From Calditrichota bacterium (GTDB lineage: Bacteria > CLD3): 64,000 nt of DNA. The translations under genes were made by a program, and so were the position numbers. Below, piece by piece: positions 7,277-37,468 of this stretch. Below the pieces are notes generated by a model. That model searched no databases. It was not told the DNA's origin and saw only the letters and a list, made by a program, of their open reading frames with translations. The stretch is taken from contig QQUF01000045.1 in the NCBI GenBank assembly GCA_008501735.1, positions 5,735 to 69,734 on the forward strand, written 5' to 3'. Within the stretch, counting starts at the first letter, position 1, and every line of letters begins with the position of its first letter.

Positions 7277-8752
7277 ATGAAAAAAACAATTAAGTTTATA
7301 CTTATATCTTCTGCCTTTGGAGCATTTGCTTCTAATTCGTTTGCACAAAAAATTTATTGGACTGATACCAACTCTGATAAAATCCAAAGAGCTGATTTAG
7401 ATGGCTCAAATGTAGAGGATTTAGTTTCAACTGGCTTGATGAGTCCTGAAGGGTTGGCATTAGATTTAAATAGTTCCAAAATGTATTGGGTTGATTTTGG
7501 TACAAATAAAATTCAAAGAGCTAATTTAGATGGCTCGAATGTTGAAGATTTGATTTCAACTGGCCTTGTCGATCCTTTTGATTTAGCATTAGATTTAAAT
7601 AATTCTAAAATGTATTGGGTTGACGCTGGCACGAATAAAATGCAAAGAGCTAATTTAGATGGCTCGAATGTTGAAGATTTGATAACTAGTTTAATATACC
7701 CATATGGAATAACTTTAGATTTAGTAAATTCAAAAGTATATTGGACAGACGCAGCTCAAGCAAGAGTTTATAGAGCTAATTTGGATGGTTCTAATATTGA
7801 AATAATTATTCCAGGTGGCAGTTTCTTAAACCCAAAAGGTATTGCTTTGGATTTAATAAATTCTAAATTGTATTTTACTGATCAAGGTGACCCAAGAGTT
7901 GTTAGGTCTAATTTAGATGGTTCCAATATAGAAGTCATTTTTACAGATACAGAATTAAGCGAAAACTCTCACCCTCAAGAAATTGTTCTAGATATTGCAA
8001 ACTCTAAATTTTATTTTGCTCTTTCTGGAACAGATAAAATTTCTAAAGCAAATTTTGATGGAACCTCATTAGAAGATGTAATCATAGGAATTCCAGCTCC
8101 TCGTAGTTTAGCCTTATCCATAAGTGATAATCCACTTTCTGTTGAACTTTCCTACTTTAATGCACATCAAATTGGAAACTCAATCCAATTAAACTGGGCA
8201 ACAGGTTCTGAAAAAGATAATGCTGGTTTTAATATTTATAGAAAATTTGCTGATAATGATTTTTTTAAAATCTCTTCTTTTAGAACTAACATAAGTTTGA
8301 TAGGTCAAGGTAACACATCTTTCGATACTCAATATAAATTTACTGACTACTCGAATTTTAATAATAGTGAAATTTACACTTACTTAATTGCTGATGTAGA
8401 TGCAAAAGGAGCCGAAACAATACATAAAGAAATATCACAAAGTGTTTTATTTGAACTTAAGACACAAAAAGTCAATAGATTTGCATTAGAACAGAATTAC
8501 CCAAACCCTTTCAACCCGAAAACAACAATTTCTTATCAACTTGAAAAAGATTCAGAAGTAAACCTTAAAATTTACAATGAAAAGGGAAATTTTGTAAAAA
8601 GCTTATCAAATGGCTTCCAAAAACAAGGGTCTTACAAAGTTATTTGGGATGGCACCGACAATAATGGAAATCAAGTTTCAAATGGCACTTATTTTTATAA
8701 ACTTATAACTGAAACTTTCTCTCAATCAAATAAAATGATTTTATTAAAATAA
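7277..8752 (+). CDS. YWTD (LDL-receptor class B-like) beta-propeller protein with T9SS C-terminal sorting domain
   Basis: 491 aa; signal peptide; repeated blades of the form KIYWTD/KMYWVD...KIQRANLDGSNVEDL; conserved pre-CTD module LSVELSYF...SIQLNW...GFNIYRK; T9SS tail NYPNPFNPKTTISYQL...GTYFYKL. Confidence 0.8.
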   Translation: MKKTIKFILISSAFGAFASNSFAQKIYWTDTNSDKIQRADLDGSNVEDLVSTGLMSPEGLALDLNSSKMYWVDFGTNKIQRANLDGSNVEDLISTGLVDPFDLALDLNNSKMYWVDAGTNKMQRANLDGSNVEDLITSLIYPYGITLDLVNSKVYWTDAAQARVYRANLDGSNIEIIIPGGSFLNPKGIALDLINSKLYFTDQGDPRVVRSNLDGSNIEVIFTDTELSENSHPQEIVLDIANSKFYFALSGTDKISKANFDGTSLEDVIIGIPAPRSLALSISDNPLSVELSYFNAHQIGNSIQLNWATGSEKDNAGFNIYRKFADNDFFKISSFRTNISLIGQGNTSFDTQYKFTDYSNFNNSEIYTYLIADVDAKGAETIHKEISQSVLFELKTQKVNRFALEQNYPNPFNPKTTISYQLEKDSEVNLKIYNEKGNFVKSLSNGFQKQGSYKVIWDGTDNNGNQVSNGTYFYKLITETFSQSNKMILLK

Positions 8753-10654: not shown

Positions 10655-13600
10655 ATGTTTATGCCTTACAAAATCATTTCAAAAATTGCATCTGGAACTT
10701 TCGGAACAGTTTACAAAGCTCAAGAATCAACTAAAGGTGAATTCTACGCACTAAAATTAATTCACGAAAATTACAAAACCCCTATAGAACTGAAACGAAT
10801 CAAACGAGGTTTTGAAACTGCACAAAAAGTCTCACACCCAAATTGTGTTAAAATGATTGAATGGTACGAGGAAAAAGACCAAATCGGTTTTGTGATGGAA
10901 TTTGTGGATTCCGTAGGGAACAAAAATCTTTGTTCCCTACAAAATAAAATCTCAAAAATCATTCAAATTTCAAATGGACTTGAAGCACTTCACTCAAGAG
11001 GAATAATTCACAGAGACCTAAAACCTTCAAATATTCTTGAGGATAAAAACGGACAAATTAAAATCACAGACTTTGATTTGGTTAAAACACAAGAGGCTTC
11101 AACAATTACAAATTCAAAATCGTTTTTGGGAACAGTAAAATTCTCTTCCCCCGAACAGTGCAAAGATTCAAGCAAAATTGACCACAGAAGCGACCTTTAC
11201 TCACTCGGAATAATTTTTTATAAACTTCTAACTAACAGATTTCCTTTTGATGGAGATTCCGTAACAAATATTATTCTTGGACATATAAGAACTCCTCTGA
11301 TTTCTCCGACTCAATTTAATCCCGAAATCCCAATTGAGATTGAAAATGTTGTCAAAAAATTATTAGCAAAAAATCGAAATGACAGGTTCAATTCGGCAAA
11401 AGAAGTAGTCGAAAAACTCCACGTATTTTTAGAAACTCCAACCGAAACTCAAATCCAAACTTCAAGTGATTTTCTTCTTTATCCAAGATTTATCGGAAGA
11501 GAAAATGATTTTAAGAAACTTGAAAAATCATTTTCAAAAACTTCGGAAAGAAAACCACAGTTTGTTTTGATTTCAGGCAAATCGGGAAGTGGTAAGACCC
11601 AACTTTGGAAAGAATTTAAAGAAGGATTTTCTGATAGAGAAACACTTTACCTTAACACAAAATGCAAGGAAAATTCCACAAGTCTTGAACCGTTAAGAGA
11701 AGTTTTATTTCAATGTTTAGAGATTTTGGAAGGATTTTCCGACAATGAAAAACTTCCCTATTTTGGGAATTTCTGTAGAGACTTGGAAATTATTTTACCG
11801 CAAATTTCACAACTTAGCTTTTTTGAAAAACTACCTCAAACCGTAAAACTTTCTCAAGAAGATGGAATTTTTAGATTGTTTGAGGCAGTAGTAACCTTGC
11901 TCAAAAATTTGCAGAAAGAAAAGATATTAGTTTTGTTTTTTGACGATTTACAATGGGCAGATTCGCAAACAACTAAATTTTTACACTTTCTACAAAACAA
12001 CTTTAAAAATGAAAAACTTTTGTTTGCAGGAACTTTAAGACCAAATTTTTCTAAATCCGAACTCAAAGAGAATTTTATAGAAAATTGCTCCCAAATAGAA
12101 CTTGAGTCTTTAACTCTTGGGCAAGTAAAAGAAGTGTTGACTTCAATGCTCGGACAAGTTGAACCTGTAGAAACCAATTTTGCACAGTTGATTTTGGAGA
12201 AGACGGAAGGAAATCCACTTTTTATTCAAGAAATTATGTTTCACTTATTGGAGCAGAAGAAAATTTATAAGAAAAAAAATAAGTGGGTTCTTTCTGAAAG
12301 TGAGATTTTGTCCGAAGAATTACCAAAAAGTATTCATTCGACAATTACAAAAAGAATGGAAGTTCTTCCAAAATCGGTTAAGAACATTTTGCAGATTGCT
12401 TCGGTAATTGGTAAAAGTTTTGATTTTGAATTACTCAAAATTCTTTTGCCAAATTTATTGGAAGTCGAAATTCAAAAAGCACTTTTAAAATCTTGTGAAG
12501 AAAATTATTTGACATCATTTTCAGAGAATTATGAATTTTATCACGACTCAATTCGTGAGACTTTAGAGAAACAAATTCAGTCAAAGAATAAAATTAAATT
12601 CCACAAACAAATTGCGAAATATCTCGAAAGAAAGTTTGACGGTGAAAACGAAGATTTGATTTTACAGCTTGCACATCATTTTTACGAAGCAAAATTAAAA
12701 CAAAAAGCAAAGAAGTATTGTTTGTCTGCAAGTAAGGTTGCTGAAAAAAAATACTCAATCTCAAATGCCATTGATTTTTTGACAAAAGCTATTGAATTAG
12801 AAGTAGATAAAGTCAAAATCATTTCTTTGACGATAAAAAAAGCACTTCTTATGAGAACTTTGGGTGTTCCTAACGAACCTTTGAAGATTGCAAAAAAGGC
12901 ACACAAGCTTTCATTAGAATTGAATGATGAGAATTTAATTGTAGATTCTCTTTTAGTAGTAGGCAACGAAGAAATCCAAAACTTTTTGTTTGAAGAAGGT
13001 TTTGCATCTTTAAATGAAGGATTGAAAATTTCTAAGAAGTTAGGAGATGAAACAAGACTTTCAAAAGCCTTGTTTAAGCTAGGTCAATATTACACAATGA
13101 AAGGTGATTTTGAAGAATCAAATTCTTATTGCCAAAAAGCACTAAAGTTAGCGATAAGTAATGGTTTAAAAGAGCTGGAAATGAAAGTCAATTTTAATAT
13201 TGCAGTTAATTTCCAAAATATTTGGGAATTTGAAAAAGCCTTAAAATACTTAGAAAATAGCATAGAACTTTCTAAAGAATTAAAATTTATCTCAGAATCA
13301 ATTTTTTATGAGACTTCTAAAGGAGTAATTTTAAGAAACTTAGGGAAACTCGAAGAATCTTATAACCTTTTTCTAAAAAATCTTACGAAAACCCAAAAAT
13401 ACGGATTTTATGAAGGAATAATTACAGCAACTTTCGGGATTAGCAATTATTTTTTCATAAAAGCCAATTACTCAAAATCAATTCCTTATTTGGAAAAAAG
13501 TATCTCTATTGCCGAAAAAATTAATGACCCAAAAGCCCTTTTGGAAGGCTTCCAAAACTATTCTTCAGTTCAATTTTTAATGGGAAATTTTGAAAAAAGT

Positions 13601-15706
13601 AATGAGTGCTTAAGAAAAGTTTGGATACTTGCAAATACTTCTAATACAAAAAAAGATTTTGCAACTTATTATAAAACAAAAGGCTTAAATCAATTTGCTC
13701 AAAAAGAGTTTGAAGCATCTGCTGAATCATTTTCCAAATCAATTCCTTTTAGAAATAATGACTATTCGGTCGGAGGAGTTTTGTTTCTCAAAGCAAATTC
13801 GCTTTTTGAACTTGGTGATTTGGAAAGTGCACAAAAAGAAAACAAACAAGCAAAAAACTTAGCAGAAAAAGTAAACGACCTTCAAACAATTACCAAATCC
13901 AAAATCCTTTCTCTAAAAATTGATTTTAACTTCGGTTTGCAAAAAAAAGCATTGGAAGGTTTGTTAGAAATTACTGAAACAGAAAAAAATGAGAAATTAC
14001 TTGCAACAGCACTTTTTGAGTTTTGTTCACTTTTTGCAAAAAATCAAAATCTTACTTTGCTCCCCGGCAAAAAAATAAATTTTGAAAGTTACAGAAAAAG
14101 AACACTTGAGCTTTTCCGAAAATTAATCCAAAATGACGAAAGTTTTGAGCTTAAAGAAAAACTAATCATTCTTGAAAACCTCAAAAATGAATCGGGAATC
14201 TTTCATTCAGGTTTCTTAAACTCACTTGTTCCTTTGATGGAACCCGAAACAATTTTGAGCGAATCAGTTGAATACCTAACTACGCAAACACAATCTAATA
14301 ATTGCTTTATTGTCCTTAGAAATAAAATAACAGGAAAATTTGAACCTTGTTTCTTTTCCAAAAATTACGAAGACAAAGAAATTGATTTTAGTCAAACGAT
14401 TTTGGAGGAAGCAATTAGAACCAATCAATCAATTTTGGTAGAAAATGCTTTGGATTCCGAGAAATTCAAAAGTAATGAAAGTATCATTGGTAAAATTTTC
14501 CTTTCTGTAATTTCCGTTCCATTTGGGAAAGATGGTGAAGCAATCGGAGCAATTTATTTAGATAGAACAAATCCTGAAAATGATGTTTACCAAAATTCCG
14601 ACTTAGAAAAGGTAAAAGGAATCGGTAAAGTTTTGTTGCCTGTAATCCAAAAACAAAACGAAAACCTAACTTTAAAAATCAAATCTCAAATTCAAGAATT
14701 AGGAATTTTTATCGGTAACAGCCCAAAAATGCAAAAAGTTTATGAAGAAATTGAAAATGCTGCAAACTACAATTTCCCAGTTTACATTTTTGGAGAAACA
14801 GGAACAGGAAAAGAACTTGTTGCAAATGCTTTACACAAACTTTCACCGCGAAGAAATGAGCCTTTTGTAGCGTTAAACTGTTCGGCAATTCCAAAAGACT
14901 TAGCAGAAAGCGAACTTTTCGGACACAAAAAAGGAGCTTTTACAGGAGCTACTTTTGATAAAAAAGGTGTTTTTGAATTAGCGGAAAATGGAACTCTTTT
15001 GCTCGATGAAGTTGGCGACCTTAGTTTGGACAACCAAGCAAAACTACTTAGAGTCATTCAAGAAAAAAAGCTAAGAGTAATCGGTTCTGAAAAAACCACG
15101 AAGGTAAATGCAAGAATCCTTGTTGCCACTCACAAGAACTTAGAAGAGGAAGTGCAAAAAGGGAATTTCCGTGAAGATTTGTTACACCGATTAGATGTTT
15201 TGAAAATATTAGTTCCACCACTAAGGGAAAGAATTGAAGACATTCCACTTTTGGCGTTTCACATTTTGGAAAAATTCAATTTGGAATCAGGTAAAAAAAA
15301 CAAAGGGCTTTCCAAAGATATTATTAAGGATTTTGAAAATTATAAATGGAAAGGAAATGTCAGAGAGTTAGAAAACAGAATTATCAAAGCCTCAGTCAAA
15401 AAGAAAAAAGATGTGCCTTTGACATTAAAAGATTTTGATTTTCTAAATCCCAAAAAGTCTGAAAAAGTAATTCAAATTACCCCTAACGAATCTCAAAATC
15501 TAAATTCTGAAAACCTAATTAATTTGGTTCACAAATTAGAAGGTGAAACAATTTATGAAAAATTAGCAACTGTCGAAAAAGCAATTATTACCCAAGCATT
15601 GAATGAGTACAACTGGAATAAAACAAAAGTATCCGCGAAGCTTGGAATTAGTAGAATGCAAATCAACAGAATAATTGCACGTTTTAATCTTGTGAAAAAA
15701 AGTTGA
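10655..15706 (+). CDS. giant multidomain regulator: Ser/Thr protein kinase - MalT/LAL-type P-loop NTPase - TPR - GAF - sigma-54 activator AAA+ - Fis-type HTH
   Basis: 1683 aa. Kinase motifs: ASGTFGTVYKA, YALKLI, HRDLKPSNIL, ITDFDL (DFG-like), SSPEQ (APE-like). Walker A GKSGSGKTQLW and Walker B LVLFFDDLQWAD (LAL-type). TPR-like central region. GAF-like (IGKIFLSVISVPF...GAIYLDR). Sigma-54 activator: GETGTGKELVANALH, ESELFGHKKGAFTGA (GAFTGA loop), LLDEVGDL, FREDLLHRLDV. C-terminal HTH KVSAKLGISRMQINRII. True start may be the second ATG at 10661 (MPYKII, matching the paralog). Confidence 0.85.
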   Translation: MFMPYKIISKIASGTFGTVYKAQESTKGEFYALKLIHENYKTPIELKRIKRGFETAQKVSHPNCVKMIEWYEEKDQIGFVMEFVDSVGNKNLCSLQNKISKIIQISNGLEALHSRGIIHRDLKPSNILEDKNGQIKITDFDLVKTQEASTITNSKSFLGTVKFSSPEQCKDSSKIDHRSDLYSLGIIFYKLLTNRFPFDGDSVTNIILGHIRTPLISPTQFNPEIPIEIENVVKKLLAKNRNDRFNSAKEVVEKLHVFLETPTETQIQTSSDFLLYPRFIGRENDFKKLEKSFSKTSERKPQFVLISGKSGSGKTQLWKEFKEGFSDRETLYLNTKCKENSTSLEPLREVLFQCLEILEGFSDNEKLPYFGNFCRDLEIILPQISQLSFFEKLPQTVKLSQEDGIFRLFEAVVTLLKNLQKEKILVLFFDDLQWADSQTTKFLHFLQNNFKNEKLLFAGTLRPNFSKSELKENFIENCSQIELESLTLGQVKEVLTSMLGQVEPVETNFAQLILEKTEGNPLFIQEIMFHLLEQKKIYKKKNKWVLSESEILSEELPKSIHSTITKRMEVLPKSVKNILQIASVIGKSFDFELLKILLPNLLEVEIQKALLKSCEENYLTSFSENYEFYHDSIRETLEKQIQSKNKIKFHKQIAKYLERKFDGENEDLILQLAHHFYEAKLKQKAKKYCLSASKVAEKKYSISNAIDFLTKAIELEVDKVKIISLTIKKALLMRTLGVPNEPLKIAKKAHKLSLELNDENLIVDSLLVVGNEEIQNFLFEEGFASLNEGLKISKKLGDETRLSKALFKLGQYYTMKGDFEESNSYCQKALKLAISNGLKELEMKVNFNIAVNFQNIWEFEKALKYLENSIELSKELKFISESIFYETSKGVILRNLGKLEESYNLFLKNLTKTQKYGFYEGIITATFGISNYFFIKANYSKSIPYLEKSISIAEKINDPKALLEGFQNYSSVQFLMGNFEKSNECLRKVWILANTSNTKKDFATYYKTKGLNQFAQKEFEASAESFSKSIPFRNNDYSVGGVLFLKANSLFELGDLESAQKENKQAKNLAEKVNDLQTITKSKILSLKIDFNFGLQKKALEGLLEITETEKNEKLLATALFEFCSLFAKNQNLTLLPGKKINFESYRKRTLELFRKLIQNDESFELKEKLIILENLKNESGIFHSGFLNSLVPLMEPETILSESVEYLTTQTQSNNCFIVLRNKITGKFEPCFFSKNYEDKEIDFSQTILEEAIRTNQSILVENALDSEKFKSNESIIGKIFLSVISVPFGKDGEAIGAIYLDRTNPENDVYQNSDLEKVKGIGKVLLPVIQKQNENLTLKIKSQIQELGIFIGNSPKMQKVYEEIENAANYNFPVYIFGETGTGKELVANALHKLSPRRNEPFVALNCSAIPKDLAESELFGHKKGAFTGATFDKKGVFELAENGTLLLDEVGDLSLDNQAKLLRVIQEKKLRVIGSEKTTKVNARILVATHKNLEEEVQKGNFREDLLHRLDVLKILVPPLRERIEDIPLLAFHILEKFNLESGKKNKGLSKDIIKDFENYKWKGNVRELENRIIKASVKKKKDVPLTLKDFDFLNPKKSEKVIQITPNESQNLNSENLINLVHKLEGETIYEKLATVEKAIITQALNEYNWNKTKVSAKLGISRMQINRIIARFNLVKKS
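10913..10940. repeat. perfect hairpin (10-bp stem, loop aaaatctt) embedded in the kinase-domain coding sequence
   Basis: gtagggaaca-aaaatctt-tgttccctac read directly from sequence; encodes VGNKNLCSL. Same position and same loop as the hairpin at 20074-20101 in the paralog, but a different stem sequence. Confidence 0.6.
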
Positions 15707-16570
15707 GTTTTAAACTTAACTTTTCTGGACTTTAAAACCTTTTTTATAATTCTTCGCCAAGTGAGCTTGATAAAAAGACTTTTAGAATGAATCGATAATC
15801 GAAAACTCGGACATTTTTCTATCATTCTAACTGATGTTACGCAAAAGAAAATAAGAACTCGGTAAAAGCTAAATTTTCTGATAAAATTTGACGTTGCTTT
15901 AACCACCCCATTTTTTCCTTTTCAGAAACTAAAGTTTCAAACGAAAAAATTCCTCTCCTTCAAAAGGGTAGAAAAAAACAAGTTGTGCTTTATACAACCG
16001 AAAACTCTCCTCCTTTACAAGGAGGAGACAGAAAACAAATTCAAGCGAAGCGTTAGAATTTTTTTCAGAGGTGGATTAAACACAAGTCAAAATAAAAAAA
16101 TCAAACTTTTCCTAATTTGCGTAACATCAGATTCTAAACTAACGTGAGTTTGAGAAAAAACTGAACTTTATCTAGCTCCTAACGCTCTTCGTAAGGGTTT
16201 TCTTTATGGAAGCCAAGATAAATATCTTTGAGAAAGGGCAACCACAAGGGTTTGCCCATACAATCTTTGTAAGAGCTTTTTTTCAAAAAATTATTTCTCG
16301 AACTCATCTTTATTCCCTCTTCAAAGTGTAACAGATTGTTCCACTTATAATTCCCATCTCATACTTTCTAACTTTTATTCTGCATTTAAACCCTACGACT
16401 AAAGACTGTAACAATTTGTTATAGCGACCGAAACACCTGTTTTTTCAATAACTTACAAACAGGAAAATCAAAAATGTAACAATTAGTTCCAAGTTCTTAG
16501 TTTAGCATCAATCTATTTTATTTGTTCTAAATATTTATTTATTAACAAATTATACTTTCAAATTCCCTTT

Positions 16571-16586
16571 TGGCATTGAGTTTGGA
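16571..16586 (+). promoter_or_regulatory. weak sigma-54-like promoter candidate (TGGCA-N6-TTGGA) upstream of the 16640 cargo gene
   Basis: tggcattgagtttgga matches the -24 TGGCA element and part of the -12 element (TTGG instead of TTGC), about 55 nt upstream of the ATG. Near-match only. Confidence 0.2.
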
Positions 16587-16639
16587 ACTAACAATTTTGT
16601 CAAACAACAAATTCATTACAAACCAAAGGAAACAAGACA

Positions 16640-18109
16640 ATGAAAAAACTTACAACTTCACTTATCACACTTAGCTTAGGGTTAACTTTAGCCTCAAATT
16701 CTTTCGCAATTAAAATGTATTGGAGTGATACTATAGATCATAAAATTCAACGAGCAAATTTAGATGGCTCAAGTGTAGAAGATTTAGTTTCAATTCCAGG
16801 TAATAGCGATATTTATGGAATAGCATTAGATATTAATAATTCAAAAATGTACTGGGCTGATTATGGAGAAGATAAAATCCAACGAGCGAACTTAGATGGT
16901 TCGAATGTAGAAGATTTGATAACAGTATTTGACTCTATATTTAACTTTGATCCTTTGGGAATTGCATTAGACTTAACAAATTCCAAAATATATTGGGTTA
17001 ATAATGGTGATAAGATAATGCGAGCAAATTTAGATGGCTCAAATGCGGAAGACATTGTCACCGGACTTAGTAGCGGAGTTGTAGATATAAATTTAGATAT
17101 TATAAATTCAAAAATTTATTGGAATGATGGTGGAACAGGTAAGATCCAAAAAGCAAATTTAGATGGCTCGAATGTGGAAGATGTCGTAACAGGAATAAAT
17201 TCTACTTATTTTATGGCTTTAGACCCAATAAATTCTAAAATATATTGGACAGGTTTTGATGCACACAAAATTGAACGAGCTAATTTAGATGGCTCAAATG
17301 TGGAAGATGTCGTAACAGGTTTAGATGAGCCGTTTGATATAACTCTTGATATTGCAAATTCCAAAATATATTGGACAGAAGCTGACAATAACAAAATCCA
17401 ACGTTGCAATTTTGACGGAACTAATGTTGAGGACCTTGTTACAGGATTATCGGAACCCGGTGCAATTGTTCTTGGTGTTCCTGACATTGCACTTTCAGTA
17501 GAACTTGCTTCTTTCTCCGCTCGCCAAATAGAAAACTCAATCCAACTCAATTGGTCAACAGCTTCCGAAACTGAAAACGAAGGTTTCAACATTTACAGAA
17601 AAATAAGTGGAAGTGAATTTGTCCAAATCGCTTCTTACAAAAGCCACAGAGAACTCAGAGGGCAAGGAAACACTTCTGTTGAGACAAATTACACTTTCAC
17701 TGACAATTCAAAATTACAAAACAATGAATTTTATACTTACGTAATTTCTGATGTTGAAACAAACGGACTTGAAACAAAGCACGAAGAAAATTCTCAAAGC
17801 GTCTTTTTTGAAATAAAAACTCAAGCTGTAAAAAGATTTGAGTTAGCTCAAAATTTCCCTAATCCTTTTAACCCAAGCACAACAATTTCTTACCAACTTG
17901 CCAAAGACACAAGAGTAAGTCTCAAGATTTACAACGAAAAAGGTGAATTTGTAAAAGAACTCACAAACGGCTTTCAGCACGAAGGTTCACACAATGCAGC
18001 TTGGGACGGAACAGATGAAAATGGAAAATCAGTTTCAAGCGGAACTTACTTCTACAAACTCCAAGCAGGAACTTTCACACAAACTAACAAAATGATTTTG
18101 TTGAAATAA
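16640..18109 (+). CDS. YWTD beta-propeller protein with T9SS C-terminal sorting domain (paralog)
   Basis: 489 aa; signal peptide MKKLTTSLITLSLGLTLASNSFA; repeated KMYWSD/KIYWVN...RANLDGSNVEDV blades; LSVELASFSARQIENSIQLNWSTASETENEGFNIYRK module; T9SS tail NFPNPFNPSTTISYQL...GTYFYKLQ. Confidence 0.8.
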   Translation: MKKLTTSLITLSLGLTLASNSFAIKMYWSDTIDHKIQRANLDGSSVEDLVSIPGNSDIYGIALDINNSKMYWADYGEDKIQRANLDGSNVEDLITVFDSIFNFDPLGIALDLTNSKIYWVNNGDKIMRANLDGSNAEDIVTGLSSGVVDINLDIINSKIYWNDGGTGKIQKANLDGSNVEDVVTGINSTYFMALDPINSKIYWTGFDAHKIERANLDGSNVEDVVTGLDEPFDITLDIANSKIYWTEADNNKIQRCNFDGTNVEDLVTGLSEPGAIVLGVPDIALSVELASFSARQIENSIQLNWSTASETENEGFNIYRKISGSEFVQIASYKSHRELRGQGNTSVETNYTFTDNSKLQNNEFYTYVISDVETNGLETKHEENSQSVFFEIKTQAVKRFELAQNFPNPFNPSTTISYQLAKDTRVSLKIYNEKGEFVKELTNGFQHEGSHNAAWDGTDENGKSVSSGTYFYKLQAGTFTQTNKMILLK

Positions 18110-18132
18110 ATTTGCTCTCTCCTCTTGTGAAG

Positions 18133-18151
18133 GCCTCATTCAAAATGAGGC
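18133..18151 (+). terminator. possible intrinsic terminator hairpin after the 16640 gene
   Basis: gcctcat-tcaaa-atgaggc inverted repeat just after the stop codon; trailing T-run is weak. Confidence 0.35.
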
Positions 18152-18192
18152 TTGCACTTTAATTAAAGATTTAAAATTTAGGAAACAAGGCA

Positions 18193-19665
18193 ATGAAAAA
18201 ACTTACAACAACACTCTTAACACTTAGTTTAGGCTTAACCTTAGCTTCAACTTCTTTCGCAGATAAAATGTATTGGACGGATTATGGAACAAAAAAAATC
18301 CAACGTTCTGACTTAGATGGTTCAAATATCGAAGACCTTGTTACAACAGGGTTAGGTTTTCCTTTTGGAATGACCTTAGATTTAACTAATTCCAAAATGT
18401 ATTGGGCGGATGGTTCGACAAATAAAATCCAACGTTCTGACTTAGATGGTTCAAATATCGAAGACCTTGTTACAACAGGGTTGAGTTTTCCTGTAGGAAT
18501 CACCTTAGATTTGACTAATTCCAAAATTTATTGGTCAAACTACGGTGACTTAAATATTCAAAGGTCTAATTTAGATGGCACAAATGTGGAAGAAGTAGTT
18601 ACAAATCTGGATACTCCTCTTGGAATTGATTTAGATTTAACAAATTCCAAAATTTATTGGGTTGACACAGGAACGAATAGAATCCAAAGAGCAAACTTAG
18701 ACGGTTCAAGTGTAGAAAATTTAGTTACATCAGGGGTAGATAATTGCAGATTTATTAAGTTAGATATAGCTAGCTCAAAAATGTATTGGACTGATACTTC
18801 AGCAGATAAAATCCAAAGAGCTAATTTAGACGGTTCTAATGTGGAAGATTTAGTTACTACAGGATTAAGTTCCCCTGTAGGTTTAGCTTTAGATATTCCA
18901 AATTCGAAAATGTATTGGACTGATACTTCAGCAGATAAAATCCAAAGAGCAAACTTAGACGGTTCTAATGTGGAAGATTTAGTTACTACAGGACTAAGTT
19001 CTCCTTCTGCAATCGCACTTAATCTTACAGACGCACCACTTTCGGTAGAATTAAATTCTTTCTCTGCTCGTCAATTTGAAAATTCAATCCAACTTAATTG
19101 GTCAACAGCTTCCGAAACTGAAAACGAAGGTTTCAACATTTACAGAAAAACAAGTGGAAGTGAATTTGTCCAAATCGCTTCTTACAAAAGCCACAGAGAA
19201 CTCAAAGGACAAGGAAACACAACATTTGAGACAGGTTACACTTTCACTGACAATTCAAAATTACAAAACAGTGAATTTTACACTTACGTAATTTCTGATG
19301 TTGAAACAAACGGAGTTGAAACCAAGCACCAAGAAAATTCTCAAAGCATAAAATTTGTTTTTGATGAAGAAATTTCACAAACAAAACTTGACTACATTTT
19401 AGCTCAAAATTTCCCTAATCCTTTTAATCCAAGCACAACAATTAATTTTCAAGTTGCGAAAACCCAAGATGTTAGACTTGCAGTTTATAATTTAAACGGA
19501 AAACTTGTGAAGGAACTTGTCAACGAACCGAAAGCCAAAGGCTCACACAATGCAGTTTGGGACGGAACAGATGAAACCGGAAAATCTGTCTCAAGTGGAA
19601 CTTATTTCTACAAAATCTCGGCAGGCACTTTCACACAAACTAACAAAATGATTTTATTAAAATAA
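18193..19665 (+). CDS. YWTD beta-propeller protein with T9SS C-terminal sorting domain (paralog with near-identical internal blade repeats)
   Basis: 490 aa; same architecture as 16640..18109; 5' region including the ribosome-binding context and signal peptide is homologous to the preceding gene. Confidence 0.8.
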   Translation: MKKLTTTLLTLSLGLTLASTSFADKMYWTDYGTKKIQRSDLDGSNIEDLVTTGLGFPFGMTLDLTNSKMYWADGSTNKIQRSDLDGSNIEDLVTTGLSFPVGITLDLTNSKIYWSNYGDLNIQRSNLDGTNVEEVVTNLDTPLGIDLDLTNSKIYWVDTGTNRIQRANLDGSSVENLVTSGVDNCRFIKLDIASSKMYWTDTSADKIQRANLDGSNVEDLVTTGLSSPVGLALDIPNSKMYWTDTSADKIQRANLDGSNVEDLVTTGLSSPSAIALNLTDAPLSVELNSFSARQFENSIQLNWSTASETENEGFNIYRKTSGSEFVQIASYKSHRELKGQGNTTFETGYTFTDNSKLQNSEFYTYVISDVETNGVETKHQENSQSIKFVFDEEISQTKLDYILAQNFPNPFNPSTTINFQVAKTQDVRLAVYNLNGKLVKELVNEPKAKGSHNAVWDGTDETGKSVSSGTYFYKISAGTFTQTNKMILLK

Positions 19666-19685
19666 ATTTGCTCTCTTACTAGAAT

Positions 19686-19720
19686 AGCCTGACAATTAAA
19701 ATTGTCGGGCTTTTTTGTTT
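19686..19720 (+). terminator. intrinsic terminator (hairpin plus T-run) after the 18193 gene
   Basis: agcctgacaatt-aaa-attgtcgggc stem (one G-U wobble) followed by ttttttgttttg. Confidence 0.6.
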
Positions 19721-19776
19721 TGTGAAATCTAGATTTCTGTTTTAAGTTTTCTAACCCAATTAAACAGAGATACAGA

Positions 19777-22700
19777 ATGCCTTACAAAATCATACGTAAA
19801 ATCGCCTCAGGAACTTTCGGCACAGTTTACAAAGTCCAGGAAACAACTAACAGTGAATTCTACGCCTTAAAATTAATCCACGAAAATTACAAAAGCCCTA
19901 AAGAACTGAAAAGAATCAAACGTGGTTTTGAGTCAGCTCAAATAGTATCACACCCAAATTGTGTAAAAATGATTGAATGGTATGAGGAAAAAGACCAAAT
20001 TGGTTTTGTGATGGAATTTGTAGATTCCGTAGAGACGCAAAATCTCGCGTATAGTGAAAAGAATAATTCCCTTGTAGAGACGCAAAATCTTGCGTCTCTA
20101 CAAAATAAAATTTCAAAAATAATTCAAATTGCAAATGGGCTTGAAGCACTTCACTCAACAGGAATCATTCACAGAGATTTGAAACCTGCAAACATTCTTG
20201 AAACCAAAGATGGTCAAATTAAAATCACTGATTTTGATTTAGTGAAACTTGACGATTCCTCCACTCTCACAGCTTCGGGAGCTTTCCTTGGAACTGCAAA
20301 ATATTCTTCTCCTGAACAATGCCAAAACTCTGCTAAAATTGATTTCCGTTCTGACCTTTACTCACTTGGAGTTCTTTTCTACCAATTAGTTTGTGGCAGA
20401 GTTCCTTTTGAAGGAGATTCATTGGCAGAAATTGCACTTGGTCACATTCGTACTCCACTAATTTCTCCAAAACAATTTGTTCCTGATTTACCAGAAGTTT
20501 TGAATACAGTAATTGCCAAACTCCTAAAAAAAAATCCAAAAGATAGATTTCAATCTGCTCAAGAAGTCTCAAAGATTTTAGATACTTTTTTGAAAGAAGG
20601 AAAAGTTGAAAACTTGGAAACTTTCGGTGATTTTCTTTTAACTCCGGGTTTCGTTGGACGAGGAAAAGAATTTTCAGAGTTGAGCAAAATCTTTTCAGAA
20701 ACAACTAACAAGCTGAAAACAATTCTAATTAGTGGTGAACAAGGAGTTGGAAAAACAAAATTGTGGAAAGAATTCAGACTTGGTTTACCAAAAAACTCAA
20801 CTTTAGTGTTTGAGACAAAGTGCAGACAAAATGGAAACACTTTTGAACCACTTCAAACAATTCTTGCAAAAGCATTAGAACAAATCGAGAAACTTTCTGG
20901 CAAAGAACAAGCTGAAAAAATTGGACGATTTGGAAAAGACCTTTGTAAGATTTTTCCACAACTTGAACAAAAATTTTTTTTTAAACATTTACTGGAAATT
21001 CCAGCTCTTGAGGGTATTGAATCAGAGCTTAGACTTTTTGAAGCATTTACAAATTTCCTAAATAATATTCAAAAAGAAAAACAGACTTTAGTTTTCTTTT
21101 TCGACGACTTACAATGGATTGATGAACTTAGTCTAAAGTTTCTTGGTTATTTAACAAGGAGTTTATCTAATAATTCAATTTTAGTTTTGGGAACTATTAG
21201 AAAAGAACAAATTGAAAATGTATTAGAAGAAATTGATGATTCTAAGATTCTCACTCTCGAAAATTTTGAATTAGAAGAAGTCCGTGAATTTCTCACAAAA
21301 ATGTTTGGCAAAGCTGACCCTGTAAACACAAGATTTTGTGAAGAAATTTTGAAACGCACAGGTGGAAATGTTTTGTTTGTTCAAGAGCTAATTTTTCACT
21401 TGTTAGAAACAAAGGAATTGAATAAAAGTGAGGGTGATTGGGATTTAGGTGAAGAATCTTTCACAAAACTAAAACTACCAAAATCAATTCAAAGTGTTGT
21501 TGGTGAACGTCTAAATTTCTTACCTAAAAATTTACTAAAGTTACTCGAAGTTGGTGCACTTCTCGGAAAGTTTTTTACAACGAAAGTAGTGGCAGAAGTC
21601 CTTTCTTTAGAAGAAAATGAAGTTGAAAGTAAATTAGCAAACTCGACTTTTGAAGGTATTTTAGAAAAATCGGAAAGTAATATTTTTGAATTCGTAAACG
21701 ACTCTTTTAGAGAAAGCCTTTCAAATTCGCTAAAACCAAATACCAAAAAGTCAATTCACAGAAAGATAGCAGTTTACTTAGAGAAGCGTTTTAATGAATT
21801 TGAAATTTTGGAAGAACTTGCTAATCATTACTTTGAAGCTGGTGTGAAGAAAAAAACTTTTAATTACTGTTTGAAAGCTGGAGTTTCTTTAAAAGAGGTT
21901 TATGACTATGCGAAAGCAGAAACATTTATTTCAAATGCAATTACTGCAATTGAAGCGAGAAATATTTCCGAAAGAATAAATATTTCTAACCTAAAGGCTG
22001 AATGCTTAGAAAAGTTGGGTGATTTTGAACAAGCCGAAAAAATTTATTCCCATAATTTAAAATTGGCATTTGATTCAAATTCTGAAAATGAAATAATAGC
22101 TGATATTTATTTTGCTTTGGGTAGAATTAATTCTGAATTATTTAATATTGAAAATACTCAAAAATATTTTAAACTATCTTTAAACCTTTACATCAAATTA
22201 AGAGATTTTAAATTTATAATTTTAATTCATAAAGAATTGTCTCGTTCATTTATTTATCAAAATAAATTTTCTGAAGCCCAAAAATATTTAGATTTAGCAT
22301 TAGAAGTTGCTGAAAGTAATAAAATTTATGATGAAGTGATTAGTTGTTATACTTACCAATGTACTATTCTTGGAAGTGTCGGAAAATTCGATGAGGTTTT
22401 GATTTATGCAAAAAAGATTAATGATTTTGAAGAAAAGCAAGGAAGTTCAAGGAAAGATTTTACGGGTTTAATTTTTCTCGGTTGGGTTTATAAAAACTTA
22501 ACAAATTTTGTAAAAGCATCTTTTTATTTTGAAAAAGCTGTTAAAAATTTAGAGAAGAACAGTTATTCTGATACATATTTAAGAGCGTTAAACGGTGTTA
22601 GCCTTTGTAATTTTGAATTAGGAAATTTTGAAAAAGCAATTGAATTCTCTTTGAAAACTATCAGACAAGCAATCCTAATTAAAGATTTTAGACAAGTAGG

Positions 22701-24834
22701 AAATTCTTACAACGACATTGCATTATTTTATACAACCTACGGAAACTTTGATGAAGCCTCTAAAATGCTTGACAAAAGCATTGAAGTATCAAGAAAAATT
22801 AATGATGAATTTCAAATTGCAAATTCATTTTATCTTTTGGGAGAGATTGAATTTTTTAAAAGCAATTTTTTAGAAGCGATTTCAAATTATGAAGAATCTG
22901 TTAAAATTTATAGTAAAATTGAAATGGAGTTCAAAGCTCCAATTTTATTATACAATCTTTCTAAGTCAAATTATAAACTCAGAAACTACCCAAAAGCATT
23001 AGAAAATATATCTAAAAGCCAAGAACTTGCCCAAAAATTTGAAAATGAGAATGTAATTTTCAATTGTCAAATTTTGAAAAATAAAATTGATTTTATGTTG
23101 GGAAATAAAGAGCAAGCAATTCAAAATATTTACTCTTTTATTCAATCTGAAAATGATGAAAGAAAATCAGCAATTTTAAGAATTTCATTCTGTAATCTTT
23201 TTGCAAAAGACCGAAGTTTGGGAATTTTGATTTCAGAGGATTTTGATTTTCAAGAATTTCTTTTAGAAACAAAAAGTTTAACTGAAAAGGTTCTGAAAGA
23301 GAAGTTTAATTATGAAATTTCTAAGGACTTAGAAGAACTGAAACTTCTTGAAAAACCTTCTATTAGCTTGGATTTAGATTTAATTTCCTCGTTTGTGAAA
23401 TGGATTGAACCTTCAAATCTTTTTAGCGAACTTTTAGAATTTTTGAAAAAACAAACAAATGCAACTTCGGCAATTCTTATTTTACAGAATCCAATTACCA
23501 AAAAATTTGAAATTGCAAGTTCAACGAATGAAATTTCAAATGAGGATTTAGATTTTAGCAAAGGTATTTTTGAAGAATCAATAAAAAATCATAAACCAAT
23601 TCTAATTGAGAATGCTTTAGAGAATCCAAATTTTAGTTCAAACCAAAGTGTTGTCGGTAAGATTTTCCTTTCGGTTTTAGTTGTCCCAGTAAGTCTAAAT
23701 AAAAAAGTTATTGGAGCAATTTACGTTGAACGCTCAAAATTGGAATTAGAAAAATTTAGAATCCCTGATTTGCAACAAGTCGAAAGAATTGCAAAACTTA
23801 TTTCACCGATTTTGCAAAAACAAAACGAAAACAAAGTTCTTAAAACTGAATCAGAAGTTAAAAAATTAGGAATCTTCATTGGTAACAGCCTAAAAATGCA
23901 AAAATTATATCAGCAAATCCAAAATGCTGCGACAGTTGATTACACAACTTACATTTACGGCGAAACCGGAACAGGGAAAGAATTAGTTGCAACTGCTCTG
24001 CACAAATTAAGTCTAAGAAAAGACAAACCTTTTGTAGTAATTAATTGCTCGGCAATTCCGAAAGATTTAGCTGAAAGTGAACTTTTCGGACATTCAAAAG
24101 GTGCGTTTAGTGGAGCAATTTCTGATAAAACAGGAAAATTTGAACTTGCAAACGAAGGAACACTTTTCCTTGATGAAGTCGCAGAATTATCTTTGGAAAT
24201 TCAAGCAAAACTGCTCCGAGCAATTCAACAAAAGGAAATTTGGCGAGTCGGTGGAAACAAAGGAATAAAAGTAAACATAAAAATCATTGTTGCAACTCAC
24301 AAAAATCTTAGCGAGGAAGTTCAGAAAGGTAATTTCCGTGAAGACCTTTTTCACAGATTAGATGTTTTGAAAATCGAAGTTCCTCCTTTGAGGGAAAGGT
24401 TAGAAGACATTCCACTTTTAGCAAATTCAATTTTAGAAAAAGTCAGTAAGGAGTTGAACAAAAAATTCTTGGGTTTCTCACAAAGTGGAATTAAATCTCT
24501 TTTTGAACAAAGATGGAAGGGGAATGTCAGAGAATTAGAAAATGTGATTACAAAATCAGTAATAAATCTTCAAATTGAAAAGTCATTAAGCGAAAATGAT
24601 TTATTCCCAAATCAAATTACCAAACGAAATTCAGATGAACCTTTAGAAGTAATCCTTAATGGAAAATCTTTTGATGAGAAATTAGAAAACTTGGGTAAAA
24701 AAATCTTGTTAACAAACTTAGAGTCCACAAATTGGAACAAACGGCAATCGGCAAGAGAATTAGGAATTAGTAGAAATAGGCTCAAACGTTTGATTTCTAA
24801 GTATGAGCTTGTTGAACCACATTCTTCACTTTAG
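19777..24834 (+). CDS. giant multidomain regulator, paralog 2: Ser/Thr kinase - LAL-type NTPase - TPR - GAF - sigma-54 activator - HTH
   Basis: 1685 aa; kinase motifs (ASGTFGTVYKV, HRDLKPANIL, ITDFDL, SSPEQ); Walker A GEQGVGKTKLW and Walker B LVFFFDDLQWID; TPR-like region; GAF-like (VGKIFLSVLVVPV...GAIYVER); sigma-54 activator (GETGTGKELVATALH, ESELFGHSKGAFSGA, FLDEVAEL, FREDLFHRLDV); C-terminal HTH (RQSARELGISRNRLKRLI). Confidence 0.85.
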   Translation: MPYKIIRKIASGTFGTVYKVQETTNSEFYALKLIHENYKSPKELKRIKRGFESAQIVSHPNCVKMIEWYEEKDQIGFVMEFVDSVETQNLAYSEKNNSLVETQNLASLQNKISKIIQIANGLEALHSTGIIHRDLKPANILETKDGQIKITDFDLVKLDDSSTLTASGAFLGTAKYSSPEQCQNSAKIDFRSDLYSLGVLFYQLVCGRVPFEGDSLAEIALGHIRTPLISPKQFVPDLPEVLNTVIAKLLKKNPKDRFQSAQEVSKILDTFLKEGKVENLETFGDFLLTPGFVGRGKEFSELSKIFSETTNKLKTILISGEQGVGKTKLWKEFRLGLPKNSTLVFETKCRQNGNTFEPLQTILAKALEQIEKLSGKEQAEKIGRFGKDLCKIFPQLEQKFFFKHLLEIPALEGIESELRLFEAFTNFLNNIQKEKQTLVFFFDDLQWIDELSLKFLGYLTRSLSNNSILVLGTIRKEQIENVLEEIDDSKILTLENFELEEVREFLTKMFGKADPVNTRFCEEILKRTGGNVLFVQELIFHLLETKELNKSEGDWDLGEESFTKLKLPKSIQSVVGERLNFLPKNLLKLLEVGALLGKFFTTKVVAEVLSLEENEVESKLANSTFEGILEKSESNIFEFVNDSFRESLSNSLKPNTKKSIHRKIAVYLEKRFNEFEILEELANHYFEAGVKKKTFNYCLKAGVSLKEVYDYAKAETFISNAITAIEARNISERINISNLKAECLEKLGDFEQAEKIYSHNLKLAFDSNSENEIIADIYFALGRINSELFNIENTQKYFKLSLNLYIKLRDFKFIILIHKELSRSFIYQNKFSEAQKYLDLALEVAESNKIYDEVISCYTYQCTILGSVGKFDEVLIYAKKINDFEEKQGSSRKDFTGLIFLGWVYKNLTNFVKASFYFEKAVKNLEKNSYSDTYLRALNGVSLCNFELGNFEKAIEFSLKTIRQAILIKDFRQVGNSYNDIALFYTTYGNFDEASKMLDKSIEVSRKINDEFQIANSFYLLGEIEFFKSNFLEAISNYEESVKIYSKIEMEFKAPILLYNLSKSNYKLRNYPKALENISKSQELAQKFENENVIFNCQILKNKIDFMLGNKEQAIQNIYSFIQSENDERKSAILRISFCNLFAKDRSLGILISEDFDFQEFLLETKSLTEKVLKEKFNYEISKDLEELKLLEKPSISLDLDLISSFVKWIEPSNLFSELLEFLKKQTNATSAILILQNPITKKFEIASSTNEISNEDLDFSKGIFEESIKNHKPILIENALENPNFSSNQSVVGKIFLSVLVVPVSLNKKVIGAIYVERSKLELEKFRIPDLQQVERIAKLISPILQKQNENKVLKTESEVKKLGIFIGNSLKMQKLYQQIQNAATVDYTTYIYGETGTGKELVATALHKLSLRKDKPFVVINCSAIPKDLAESELFGHSKGAFSGAISDKTGKFELANEGTLFLDEVAELSLEIQAKLLRAIQQKEIWRVGGNKGIKVNIKIIVATHKNLSEEVQKGNFREDLFHRLDVLKIEVPPLRERLEDIPLLANSILEKVSKELNKKFLGFSQSGIKSLFEQRWKGNVRELENVITKSVINLQIEKSLSENDLFPNQITKRNSDEPLEVILNGKSFDEKLENLGKKILLTNLESTNWNKRQSARELGISRNRLKRLISKYELVEPHSSL
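20074..20101. repeat. perfect hairpin (10-bp stem, loop aaaatctt) embedded in the kinase-domain coding sequence, preceded by a partial direct copy at 20029-20050
   Basis: gtagagacgc-aaaatctt-gcgtctctac read directly; a 22-nt near-copy gtagagacgcaaaatctcgcgt lies 45 nt upstream; together they encode an insertion (VETQNLAYSEKNNSLVETQNLASL) relative to paralog 1. Confidence 0.6.
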
Positions 24835-24900
24835 TAAAGCATTACAGCAAAAGGATCTAATACGAACCACCATAAATTCAATAATTTAAATTATTTATAA

Positions 24901-24960
24901 AAAAGGGTCTAGAGTGAACCCAATGATTTTAAAATCATTGGGTTCACTCTAGACCCTTTT
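24901..24960. terminator. 60-bp perfect palindrome (probable bidirectional terminator or protein-binding site) downstream of regulator paralog 2
   Basis: aaaagggtctagagtgaacccaatgatttt immediately followed by its exact reverse complement aaaatcattgggttcactctagaccctttt; flanked by an A-run on the 5' side and T-run on the 3' side. Confidence 0.55.
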
Positions 24961-25137
24961 TTTGTTTAAAGGAACAATGGGCTTGAATCAAATTATTGAT
25001 TTTACACAACTTATACAACCTTTGGAAAATTTGGCACAGAATTAGTAACTACTTTGAGGTAATTAATTACATAGCCTTTCGTCTCGTAGTTTTATTGCTA
25101 CGAGGCGATTTATTAATTAAAACTAAGGAACTAAAAA

Positions 25138-26613
25138 ATGCACAAATTTACAAAAGCCTTCATTTCTTTAAGTTTACCACTTTGCTTTATCGCAAACGTC
25201 AATGCACAGAAAATTTATTGGTCCGACCAACCAAATTTGAAAAGAGCAGATCTAGATGGCTCAAATGTAGAAGACATTACTCCAGCAATTTTTAACGGTC
25301 CAAGAGCCGTTACAGTTAATAAAACAGAATCAAAGATTTATTGGGTTGACCAAAACGGATTTAATTATCGCAAATCTGATTTAGACGGTACAAATTTGGA
25401 AACTTTGTTCAATACAACAGGTGGTGCAGGAACTGCAATGGCAATTGATGAAACAAACTCAAATATTTATCACGGAAATGTTAGTTTTGTAGGTGGCTTT
25501 AACCCATTTATTGAAAAAAGAAATTTAGATGGTTCGAACAACTCTACAATTATTAGTTCTTTATCTGGTAGTGTCAAAGATATTGCATTAGATGTTAATA
25601 ACTCTTTAATTTATTTTACAGTTTCAAATACAATCCAAACAGTAAACTTTGATGGCTCTAACCAACAAACTATTGTTACAGCAACAAGTAATATTCAAGA
25701 CATTACTTTAGATTTGACGAATAATAAACTTTACTACACAGACCAAAACACTGGTTTAAATACTGGAAAAGTAGTAAGAACAGACTTAGATGGTTCAAAT
25801 CCAACAGACATTCTTACAGCCTTATCTAATCCTGAAGATATTCATTTAGATGTAACAAATTCTCAAATCTATTGGGGAGACGGTGGAGAAGATAAAATTT
25901 TTAGATGCAATTTTGACGGAACAGGAACTGAGACAATTGTCACTGGAGTCAGTATTTCTATTGCTGATTTCTCATTAGTCTCAGCAGATGCACCACTTTC
26001 TGTAGAATTAAATTATTTCACAGCTCGTCAAATTGAAAACTCAATTCAGCTTTCCTGGGCAACGGCTTCTGAAACTGAAAATGAAGGTTTTAATGTTTAT
26101 AGAAAATTAGGAAATGAGGATTTTGTAAAAATCGCTTCTCACAAATCTCACACTGAACTTAAAGGGCAAGGGAACACTTCTTTAGAAACTTTTTACACCT
26201 TTAATGACAACTCAAAATTACAAAATGGCGAATTTTACACTTACCTAATTTCAGACGTTGAAACAAATGGAATTGAAACTAAGCACGAAGAATCTGCTCA
26301 AAGTGTTCTTTTTGAAGTCCAATCACAGGAAGTCAGAAAATTCGAGTTAAAACAAAACTATCCTAATCCTTTTAATCCAAGTACAACAATTTCTTACAAT
26401 CTTGCAAAAGATTCAAAAGTAAGTCTCAAGATTTACAATGAAATAGGTGAATTTGTCAAAGAACTCACAAATGGTTTTCGTTACGAAGGTTCACACAATG
26501 TAATTTGGGACGGAACTAACAACAATGGAAAATCTGTTTCAAGTGGAACTTACTTCTACAAAATTTCAGCAGGAACTTTCACACAAACTAACAAAATGAT
26601 TCTACTCAAATAA
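25138..26613 (+). CDS. divergent YWTD-like beta-propeller protein with T9SS C-terminal sorting domain
   Basis: 491 aa; signal peptide; degenerate blades (KIYWSD, KIYWVD, LIYFT, KLYYTD, QIYWGD with DLDGSN/DLDGTN); LSVELNYFTARQIENSIQLSW module; T9SS tail. The C-terminal ~375 nt is identical to the next gene. Confidence 0.75.
   Translation: MHKFTKAFISLSLPLCFIANVNAQKIYWSDQPNLKRADLDGSNVEDITPAIFNGPRAVTVNKTESKIYWVDQNGFNYRKSDLDGTNLETLFNTTGGAGTAMAIDETNSNIYHGNVSFVGGFNPFIEKRNLDGSNNSTIISSLSGSVKDIALDVNNSLIYFTVSNTIQTVNFDGSNQQTIVTATSNIQDITLDLTNNKLYYTDQNTGLNTGKVVRTDLDGSNPTDILTALSNPEDIHLDVTNSQIYWGDGGEDKIFRCNFDGTGTETIVTGVSISIADFSLVSADAPLSVELNYFTARQIENSIQLSWATASETENEGFNVYRKLGNEDFVKIASHKSHTELKGQGNTSLETFYTFNDNSKLQNGEFYTYLISDVETNGIETKHEESAQSVLFEVQSQEVRKFELKQNYPNPFNPSTTISYNLAKDSKVSLKIYNEIGEFVKELTNGFRYEGSHNVIWDGTNNNGKSVSSGTYFYKISAGTFTQTNKMILLK
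26083..26457 (+). repeat. ~375-bp tract identical to 28413..28787 (copy A)
   Basis: Direct by-eye nucleotide comparison: gaaggttttaatgtttatagaaaattagg ... gaaataggtgaatttgt is identical in both adjacent genes, whereas flanking sequence differs at multiple sites. Confidence 0.8.
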
Positions 26614-33488: not shown

Positions 33489-33518
33489 TTTGAATTCTTT
33501 TTAAGTTTAGAGTGAATT

Positions 33519-37427: not shown

Positions 37428-37468
37428 TTTTAAGTTATTTGAGTTTTGAGTTTGATTTTTTGAACTAA

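Follow-up and report, generated by a model that had tools for sequence, protein, structure and literature searches.

Two palindromes inside paralogous kinase genes of a Calditrichota bacterium are probably copies of a small dispersed GTAG...CTAC repeat

The stretch of a Calditrichota metagenome-assembled genome (MAG) analysed here (64,000 nucleotides of contig QQUF01000045.1; hereafter the window) encodes two paralogous regulators of roughly 1,685 aa, called paralogs 1 and 2. Each has a perfect 28-nt palindrome inside the coding region of its kinase domain (Table 1). We argue that these hairpins are probably resident in-frame copies of a very small dispersed GTAG...CTAC repeat, which behaves like the repetitive extragenic palindromic (REP) elements of the GTAG type. 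A sequence-only reading of this DNA had seen the matched differences between the two stems as a sign of selection on a nucleic-acid structure. On our reading the differences are matched because the two variants of the repeat are palindromic by construction, and we see no evidence that a structure in the kinase mRNA is under selection.

Both palindromes lie at the same codon position, directly after the ...FVMEFVDS of the N-terminal kinase domain. The paralog 1 copy is read in frame as VGNKNLCSL(Q), the GNK variant, and the paralog 2 copy as VETQNLASL(Q), the ETQ variant. Their arms differ at four positions, and direct reading of the sequence finds a complementary change opposite all four. This much of the sequence-only reading is confirmed, and the pairing is longer than the ten base pairs it described: around a 4-nt AATC loop the stem of paralog 1 has 12 bp and that of paralog 2 has 14. 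The predicted RNA hairpins have energies of -18 and -21.9 kcal/mol respectively, and 0 of 200 shuffles fold as well. The pattern GTAG-N20-CTAC is found 2 times in the window versus 0.11 expected. No further family-like copies occur in the 64 kb.

Paralog 2 has 15 extra codons at this site. Positions 20029-20050 match 20074-20095 at 21 of 22 bases with an offset of 45 nt, just as had been noticed from the sequence. The two 45-nt units are identical at 32 of 45 bases, while the background mean is 12.8, so the extra codons arose by tandem duplication of a unit made up of the element and the 17 nt after it. No intact palindrome is left in the upstream copy. The idea that the site is a duplication or recombination hotspot holds only as far as this one 45-nt tandem duplication goes; support is limited to that event.

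The evidence that carries our argument comes from other genomes. One genome per bacterial or archaeal species was scanned with GTAGNGNNNNAAAATCTTNNNNCNCTAC, a pattern of 18 fixed bases in which interior pairing is not forced. At least 118 stretches in at least 15 phyla match it. By our own arithmetic about 17 matches to 18 fixed bases are expected by chance in 596 Gb, counting both strands. A chance match would be palindromic about 1 time in 1,000, so far fewer than one chance palindrome is expected. There are 127 instances among the matches listed, and 103 of them are perfect palindromes over the 10-nt arms. The paralog 2 28-mer recurs identically in 46 of these 127, in unrelated phyla, and the paralog 1 28-mer in 1, from a Roizmanbacteria MAG. 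At the five free pairs, 94-98% of copies have Watson-Crick bases, versus 46-75% expected from column composition, and 38 variants are seen.

The hosts are diverse. They include Bacteroidota, Chlorobium, Planctomycetota (anammox bacteria among them), Chloroflexota, Desulfobacterota, Binatia, several lineages of the Candidate Phyla Radiation, Acidobacteriota, Armatimonadota, Omnitrophota, Spirochaetota, Deferribacteres, Latescibacteria, Marinimicrobia and Gammaproteobacteria. Isolate genomes and closed long-read chromosomes are represented, and the copies in them are mid-contig, so it is unlikely that 28-mers shared across phyla are a sequencing or assembly artefact. In some genomes the own variant is repeated: an Ardenticatenaceae MAG has 5 copies, and Gracilimonas, a Deferribacteres MAG and a Planctomycetaceae MAG also have several. 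The retrieved DNA of some MAGs and phage contigs, which are partial genomes, holds 4-6 copies. The 28-mer can also sit inside a longer repeated unit with conserved flanks (e.g. tatgtg...attgcggcg) or in short tandem arrays with a period of 120-260 nt. This was seen in the Planctomycetaceae MAG (L007, L011, L019, L108), in Dehalococcoidia (L026, L098) and in L078. A literature search with the arm sequences returned only unrelated primers and short hairpin RNAs. Rfam scans by E-value gave sub-threshold noise from microRNA-like hairpins and no family match.

The anatomy of the unit is simple. It is a 14-nt half-site followed by its own reverse complement, and the ends GTAG(A/G)G...C(C/T)CTAC are conserved. 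GTAG was fixed in the search patterns, and the head is shared also by palindromes found without a fixed interior. With the centre left free, the same loci yield 9 extra GTAG...CTAC palindromes; all 9 have a length of exactly 28 nt and the same head. The edge is sharp: pairing is 34% at the first flanking position and about 25% further out. Most copies lie between genes and close to gene 3' ends; 80 of the 127 listed are in open frames of less than 150 aa. Where there are close genes on both sides, these are convergent for 30 copies, co-directional for 33 and divergent for 7, and the median distance from a copy to a gene 3' end is 47 nt. The genes beside the copies are ordinary housekeeping genes. 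No Y1 transposase or recurrent family was found among the 101 open reading frames (ORFs) that flank copies elsewhere.

The element is also found in phages. Contigs in IMG/VR hold 105 ETQ-stem and 73 GGGGCGA-stem copies, and exact paralog 2 28-mers are among them. Recurrent centres include AAAATCTT, GATTAATC, AAAATATT, TTCATGAA and ATCATGAT, and most centres are themselves palindromic. Some of the viral copies sit between capsid, tail and baseplate genes, and the ORFs bracketed by two copies are phage structural genes. Copies with the centres AATAGCTT and AATATTTT are exactly 1,857 nt apart in L206, L207, L208, L220 and L224; this pair brackets the major capsid gene in several related IMG/VR phage contigs. 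There is no exact copy in GenBank phages or PLSDB plasmids. An approximate E. coli RAYT sequence, used as a query, found only one enterobacterial relative in the viral contigs.

Copies inside genes are not confined to the regulators. The Roizmanbacteria instance of the paralog 1 28-mer (L040) lies in a thiamin pyrophosphokinase gene and is read there in another frame, as CREQKSLFPT. That protein has a 7-residue insertion relative to PDB 3lm8 at the element. The ETQ 28-mer is read elsewhere as VETQNLASLR, RRDAKSCVST and VETQDFASLH. Since the same DNA is used in different frames, the identity is at the DNA level and is not protein convergence. One copy lies in the linker of a ThiD-ThiE fusion and one in a CHAT protein. 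The HsdR gene (type I restriction R-subunit) of a Geobacter MAG has three in-frame copies (L112:655-3957), and a fourth is just outside the gene.

The next question is how long the element has been in the regulators. The most informative paralogs are known at this site from peptides alone, and their palindromes are inferred from those peptides (Table 1). The doubled peptide of paralog 2 recurs in P0001, P0127 and P0140, and P0128 also has an ETQ-type or GNK-type peptide at the site. DNA was retrieved for P0128 (L201), where 9 of 12 pairs are kept, and for P0129 (L203), where 4 of 12 are kept. The element is absent from the third regulator paralog, and from P0131-P0136 and P0148, which have the ordinary EGKPIS.LK.. 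at the site. A metagenome scan for kinase relatives returned only kinases with at most 36% identity, and orthologous DNA was not found. Loop inversion was considered for the KDF peptide of P0145 and is not needed: the NL, NF and DF centres are one substitution apart around AAAATTTT. The N-termini of P0122, P0127 and P0140 are similar to those of paralogs 1 and 2 when judged by eye. On these sequences we take the element to be old in the Calditrichota regulator clade, with one tandem duplication, two alternating variants and decay in some lineages.

Table 1. Coordinates of features in the window, and peptides at the element site in related regulators
Feature	Positions	Strand	Description
Paralog 1, DWQ06_12280	10655-15706	+	Ser/Thr kinase, AAA_16/STAND, TPR, GAF, sigma-54 activator, HTH_8
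Paralog 2, DWQ06_12295	19777-24834	+	Domain architecture as paralog 1
Kinase domains of paralogs 1 and 2	10655-11554, 19777-20721		DFD replaces the usual DFG, SPE replaces the usual APE
Palindrome in paralog 1, GNK variant	10913-10940		Perfect, 28 nt; GTAGGGAACAAAAATCTTTGTTCCCTAC = GTAGGGAACA AAAATCTT TGTTCCCTAC
Palindrome in paralog 2, ETQ variant	20074-20101		Perfect, 28 nt; GTAGAGACGCAAAATCTTGCGTCTCTAC = GTAGAGACGC AAAATCTT GCGTCTCTAC
Decayed upstream copy of ETQ variant in paralog 2	20029-20056		GTAGAGACGCAAAATCTCGCGTATAGTG; 6/12 pairs remaining
45-nt unit (element + 17 nt)	20029-20073	+	Tandem duplicate of 20074-20118
Long palindrome	24899-24962		Perfect, 64 nt (32 + 32 nt, spacerless), 65 nt past the paralog 2 stop codon; bordered by an A-run and a T-run
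Four ~490-aa paralogs	7277-8752, 16640-18109, 18193-19665, 25138-26613		YWTD/LDL-receptor class B beta-propeller, FlgD_ig, type IX secretion system (T9SS) C-terminal sorting domain
Three tandem ~1,300-aa paralogs	29589-41377		Sortilin/VPS10 and fibronectin type III domains
Third regulator paralog	60005-63997 and beyond		1,559 aa; L199:1119-5798
P0122			VETQNLTSLQ; necessarily imperfect pairing, compensation would create a stop codon
P0140			VETHRSASVGKDNSI-VETQNLASLQ; two copies
P0001			VETQKLASSKKNNSV-LETQNLASLK; two copies
P0127			VETQNLASSEKNNS-VGNKNFCSLQ; ETQ copy, then GNK copy
P0142			EGKPIFL-VGNKNFCSLQ; GNK copy
P0145			EGEPIS-VGNKDFCSLQ; GNK copy

It is worth considering what the element does to the kinase. 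Its residues align to the hinge/alphaD segment of the StkP and PknB structures, and in that segment paralog 1 has about six residues fewer than those kinases. An AlphaFold model of the paralog 2 N-terminus is confident for the kinase fold, with a mean predicted local distance difference test score (pLDDT) of 80. The pLDDT falls below 50 exactly over residues 86-105, which are encoded by both copies, and helix alphaE follows from residue 108. In this model the element probably encodes a tolerated surface loop, disordered, in place of helix alphaD.

Something must still account for the perfection of the two window copies. Four-fold sites differ between paralogs 1 and 2 at 39-43% in codons 1-150 and at 50-70% elsewhere; the first ~85 residues are ~89% identical and the remainder 15-50%. 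Recent gene conversion between the paralogs was considered as the cause of the similar flanks, and it was rejected on the ~40% divergence at four-fold sites. Because both copies are perfect despite this divergence, some process maintains or renews their palindromy. The sequence-only reading was right that protein coding alone is insufficient here, since it would not keep two different palindromes intact over such a distance. The family-wide pattern puts the maintaining process at the level of the element and not at that of the kinase mRNA.

The best of the other explanations is that natural selection on the regulator gene preserves the pairing, and that the hairpin serves it in cis as RNA or DNA, for example as a translational pause that helps the kinase to fold, an RNase site or a recombination site. 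In favour of this are an element at the same site in many paralogs, strong hairpins with four compensated pairs, and perfect pairing in two window genes that differ at ~40% of their four-fold sites. We consider this improbable once other genomes are brought in. Identical 28-mers turn up between genes, within other genes and in other frames, as well as in the phages of unrelated phyla. L201, L203 and the paralog 2 upstream copy have all lost pairs, and pairing cannot be complete in P0122, where a stop codon stands in the way. The element is absent altogether from paralog 3 and the more distant homologs. In the five site sequences for which DNA was retrieved, only 76.7% of cells are paired. Almost all of the both-sided changes set paralog 1 against the rest. 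There is no Rfam match for such a structure. Sequence identity is unbroken at the element, contrary to a recombination boundary.

The same evidence bears on the roles that had been suggested from the sequence. A pause, processing or inversion site specific to these genes does not fit a palindrome that belongs to a dispersed repeat with copies at 118 loci or more. It does not fit homologs that lack the element or leave its changes uncompensated either (paralog 3, P0131-P0136, L201, L203, the paralog 2 upstream copy and P0122). The sequence-only reading had itself named both kinds of observation as refuting its inference. What survives is its suggestion that a small palindromic element left a relic in frame, with exact 28-mers dispersed over unrelated phyla, other frames, phages and the DNA between genes. 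A tempting false positive is removed here: even perfect compensatory covariation between paralogs is no argument for a functional mRNA structure if the repeat family in question is self-complementary.

If the hairpins are copies of a mobile repeat, one can ask whether it moves by cut-and-paste. The 28-mer could be a minimal MITE (miniature inverted-repeat transposable element), two abutted 14-bp terminal inverted repeats of an insertion sequence (IS) family with a DDE transposase. The outer bases are conserved and the interior is variable yet matched, like the terminal repeats of an IS, and the copies are palindromic through the centre. We still find this quite unlikely. Flanking direct repeats of 1-6 nt are no more frequent than chance predicts, which leaves no excess that would point to a target-site duplication. 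A GTAG head with a hairpin is the signature of an HUH/REP substrate (PMC8266576). No transposase was found among the ORFs of the window or the 101 ORFs that flank copies elsewhere.

It is very unlikely that intrastrand template switching made the palindromes in place out of native kinase codons, with the resemblance elsewhere a coincidence. Paralog 1 has no net insertion, and the S-L encoded by the right arm lines up with a conserved S-L where helix alphaE begins, both of which such an origin would accommodate. It would not produce 28/28 identity to at least 46 copies in unrelated genomes, which is beyond coincidence, nor the shared fixed length and GTAG(A/G)G head. The element-less homologs have unrelated codons at the site. 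That the palindromes are due to chance or to assembly error is scarcely credible, given 2 observed versus 0.11 expected at homologous codons and the same peptides in independent MAG and Logan assemblies.

We return to the dispersed repeat. In the scenario we favour, one copy would have landed in the kinase hinge/alphaD of an ancestral regulator and replaced part of it. This copy would have been inherited through the expansion of the paralogs and followed by one 45-nt tandem duplication. The ETQ..ASL and GNK..CSL variants would then have passed between paralogs by exchange or replacement, and other copies would have decayed. Elsewhere, copies may occasionally survive in genes where the ~9 encoded residues fall in a tolerant loop. 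We infer that the unit is a substrate of a single-strand HUH/Y1 enzyme similar to RAYT/TnpA-REP. The 5' GTAG would act as the guide, paired in cis with the 3' CTAC that carries the CT cleavage dinucleotide, and the arrangement is the same on both strands. Unit boundaries set in this way would give sharp edges and no target duplication. Perfection could be kept at the DNA level by re-copying or replacement by the mobilising enzyme, by gene conversion among paralogs, or by hairpin-templated correction.

Several points weigh against this scenario. The two perfect copies in genes with ~40% four-fold divergence mean that some maintaining force acts locally. Since 28 is not divisible by 3, a copy can be in frame only if an indel accompanies it. 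Paralog 1 has fewer residues here than its homologs, which implies replacement and not simple insertion. Canonical GTAG REPs have an unpaired GTAG and are usually specific to a lineage, not identical across phyla. Among the matches listed the GNK variant is found only once outside the regulator protein family, and it is never found in the viral contigs. There is no intergenic copy in the window or the 5.5 kb beyond it, where the only three copies are all intragenic; the element may be inactive in this genome. A match to Y1/RAYT (PF01797-type) is absent among the ORFs of the window and among the 101 flanking ORFs, a search that covers those ORFs and that a single-copy gene elsewhere in the genome would escape.

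A bolder claim can be made, and we make it only tentatively, as it is rather less likely to be right than wrong. The 28-mers could be a largely undescribed pan-bacterial class of ultra-small, autonomous-looking repeats: perfect palindromes of fixed length, with variants shared letter for letter among at least 15 phyla and their phages. Copying or correction at the DNA level would keep them perfect and could swap these variants in place, even in an essential protein domain. If so, in-place replacement would have left a natural record in the regulators, where ETQ and GNK alternate at a single codon position.

The surroundings of the two genes deserve a few words. The third regulator paralog was reached via a Logan contig that is identical to the window at the sampled places. 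Its kinase-like domain is degenerate (HQKLRPNN, with the glycine loop missing), so paralog 3 is a probable pseudokinase as judged from its residues. The long palindrome behind paralog 2 resembles a bidirectional intrinsic terminator of unusual length, and it falls outside the GTAG...CTAC family. The four ~490-aa paralogs are interleaved with the two kinase/sigma-54-activator genes, and this interleaving suggests that regulator-target cassettes were duplicated together. No sigma-54 promoter signal was found in the window. Three further large paralogs stand in tandem downstream (Table 1).

The element can be compared with several known systems. Quasi-palindrome template switching, known from Ripley and the Lovett laboratory, is an established route to perfect palindromes. 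At the DNA level it copies a change in one arm to the other, so that compensated changes can arise with no need for selection on RNA. As a mutational process it does not constitute a family of elements, and it leaves the identical copies in unrelated genomes unexplained. The Rickettsia palindromic elements (RPEs) that Ogata et al. described in 2000 are reportedly 100-150 bp long, specific to Rickettsia, and present in frame in protein-coding genes. They share with our element the properties of selfish palindromic DNA that is read in frame, places its peptide in a surface segment and does not destroy the protein. Intragenic REPs and MITEs in general (PMC3733652) have the same properties. Our element differs from RPEs in its size of 28 nt and is unrelated to them in sequence. 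The cyanobacterial SDR4-6 of Elhai et al. (in 2008) are said to be dispersed hairpins of 21-27 nt with compensatory variation, confined to a subgroup of the Nostocales. They reportedly occur within or beside their own copies and were proposed as the smallest mobile elements. The likeness, by description only, lies in the small dispersed hairpins, the compensatory variation and the self-adjacent copies.

The closest parallel is with the GTAG REPs and REPtrons (PMC3733652, PMC8266576). These too have a GTAG head by a short GC-containing hairpin of 20-40 nt, with compensated stem changes. GTAG REPs are found downstream of genes, and in several species they are intragenic, plausibly in loops or linkers (PMC3733652). 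The 28-mers likewise lie downstream of genes in convergent or co-directional spacers, where TAG or CTA sometimes abuts the gene end. They share the occasional loop or linker copy, the lack of target duplication and, in some genomes, several copies of an own variant. The extragenic downstream placement is true of the 28-mer family and not of the intragenic copies in the window. TnpA-REP cleaves at CT, 5' or 3' of the hairpin, and needs GTAG as a guide (PMC8266576). A CT is present at the 3' edge of our unit, in CTAC, a correspondence drawn from PMC8266576 only. Group-3 REPs are perfect palindromes (PMC8266576). The symmetric 28-mer is not described in Nunvar 2010 or the RepRanger paper. It differs from GTAG REPs in that GTAG pairs with the 3' CTAC in 103 of the 127 listed copies, in its symmetric fixed length of 28 bp, in the identical 28-mers of at least 15 phyla and phages, and in that no RAYT was found in the window or the 101 flanking ORFs. 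We take the locus to be a new, intragenic instance of a REP-like family. For such a family its traits are unusual: a strict 28-bp palindrome, identity across phyla, a place in phage structural modules and survival inside proteins. If it became clear by what mechanism copies are maintained and replaced, this would inform the question of how REP-type elements spread and yet remain homogeneous, and also that of how tiny selfish palindromes add loop-sized novelties to proteins. Symmetric, 28 bp long and present across phyla and phages, the family looks like an under-described variant of the GTAG REPs, and it is a more interesting lead than the locus where we met it.

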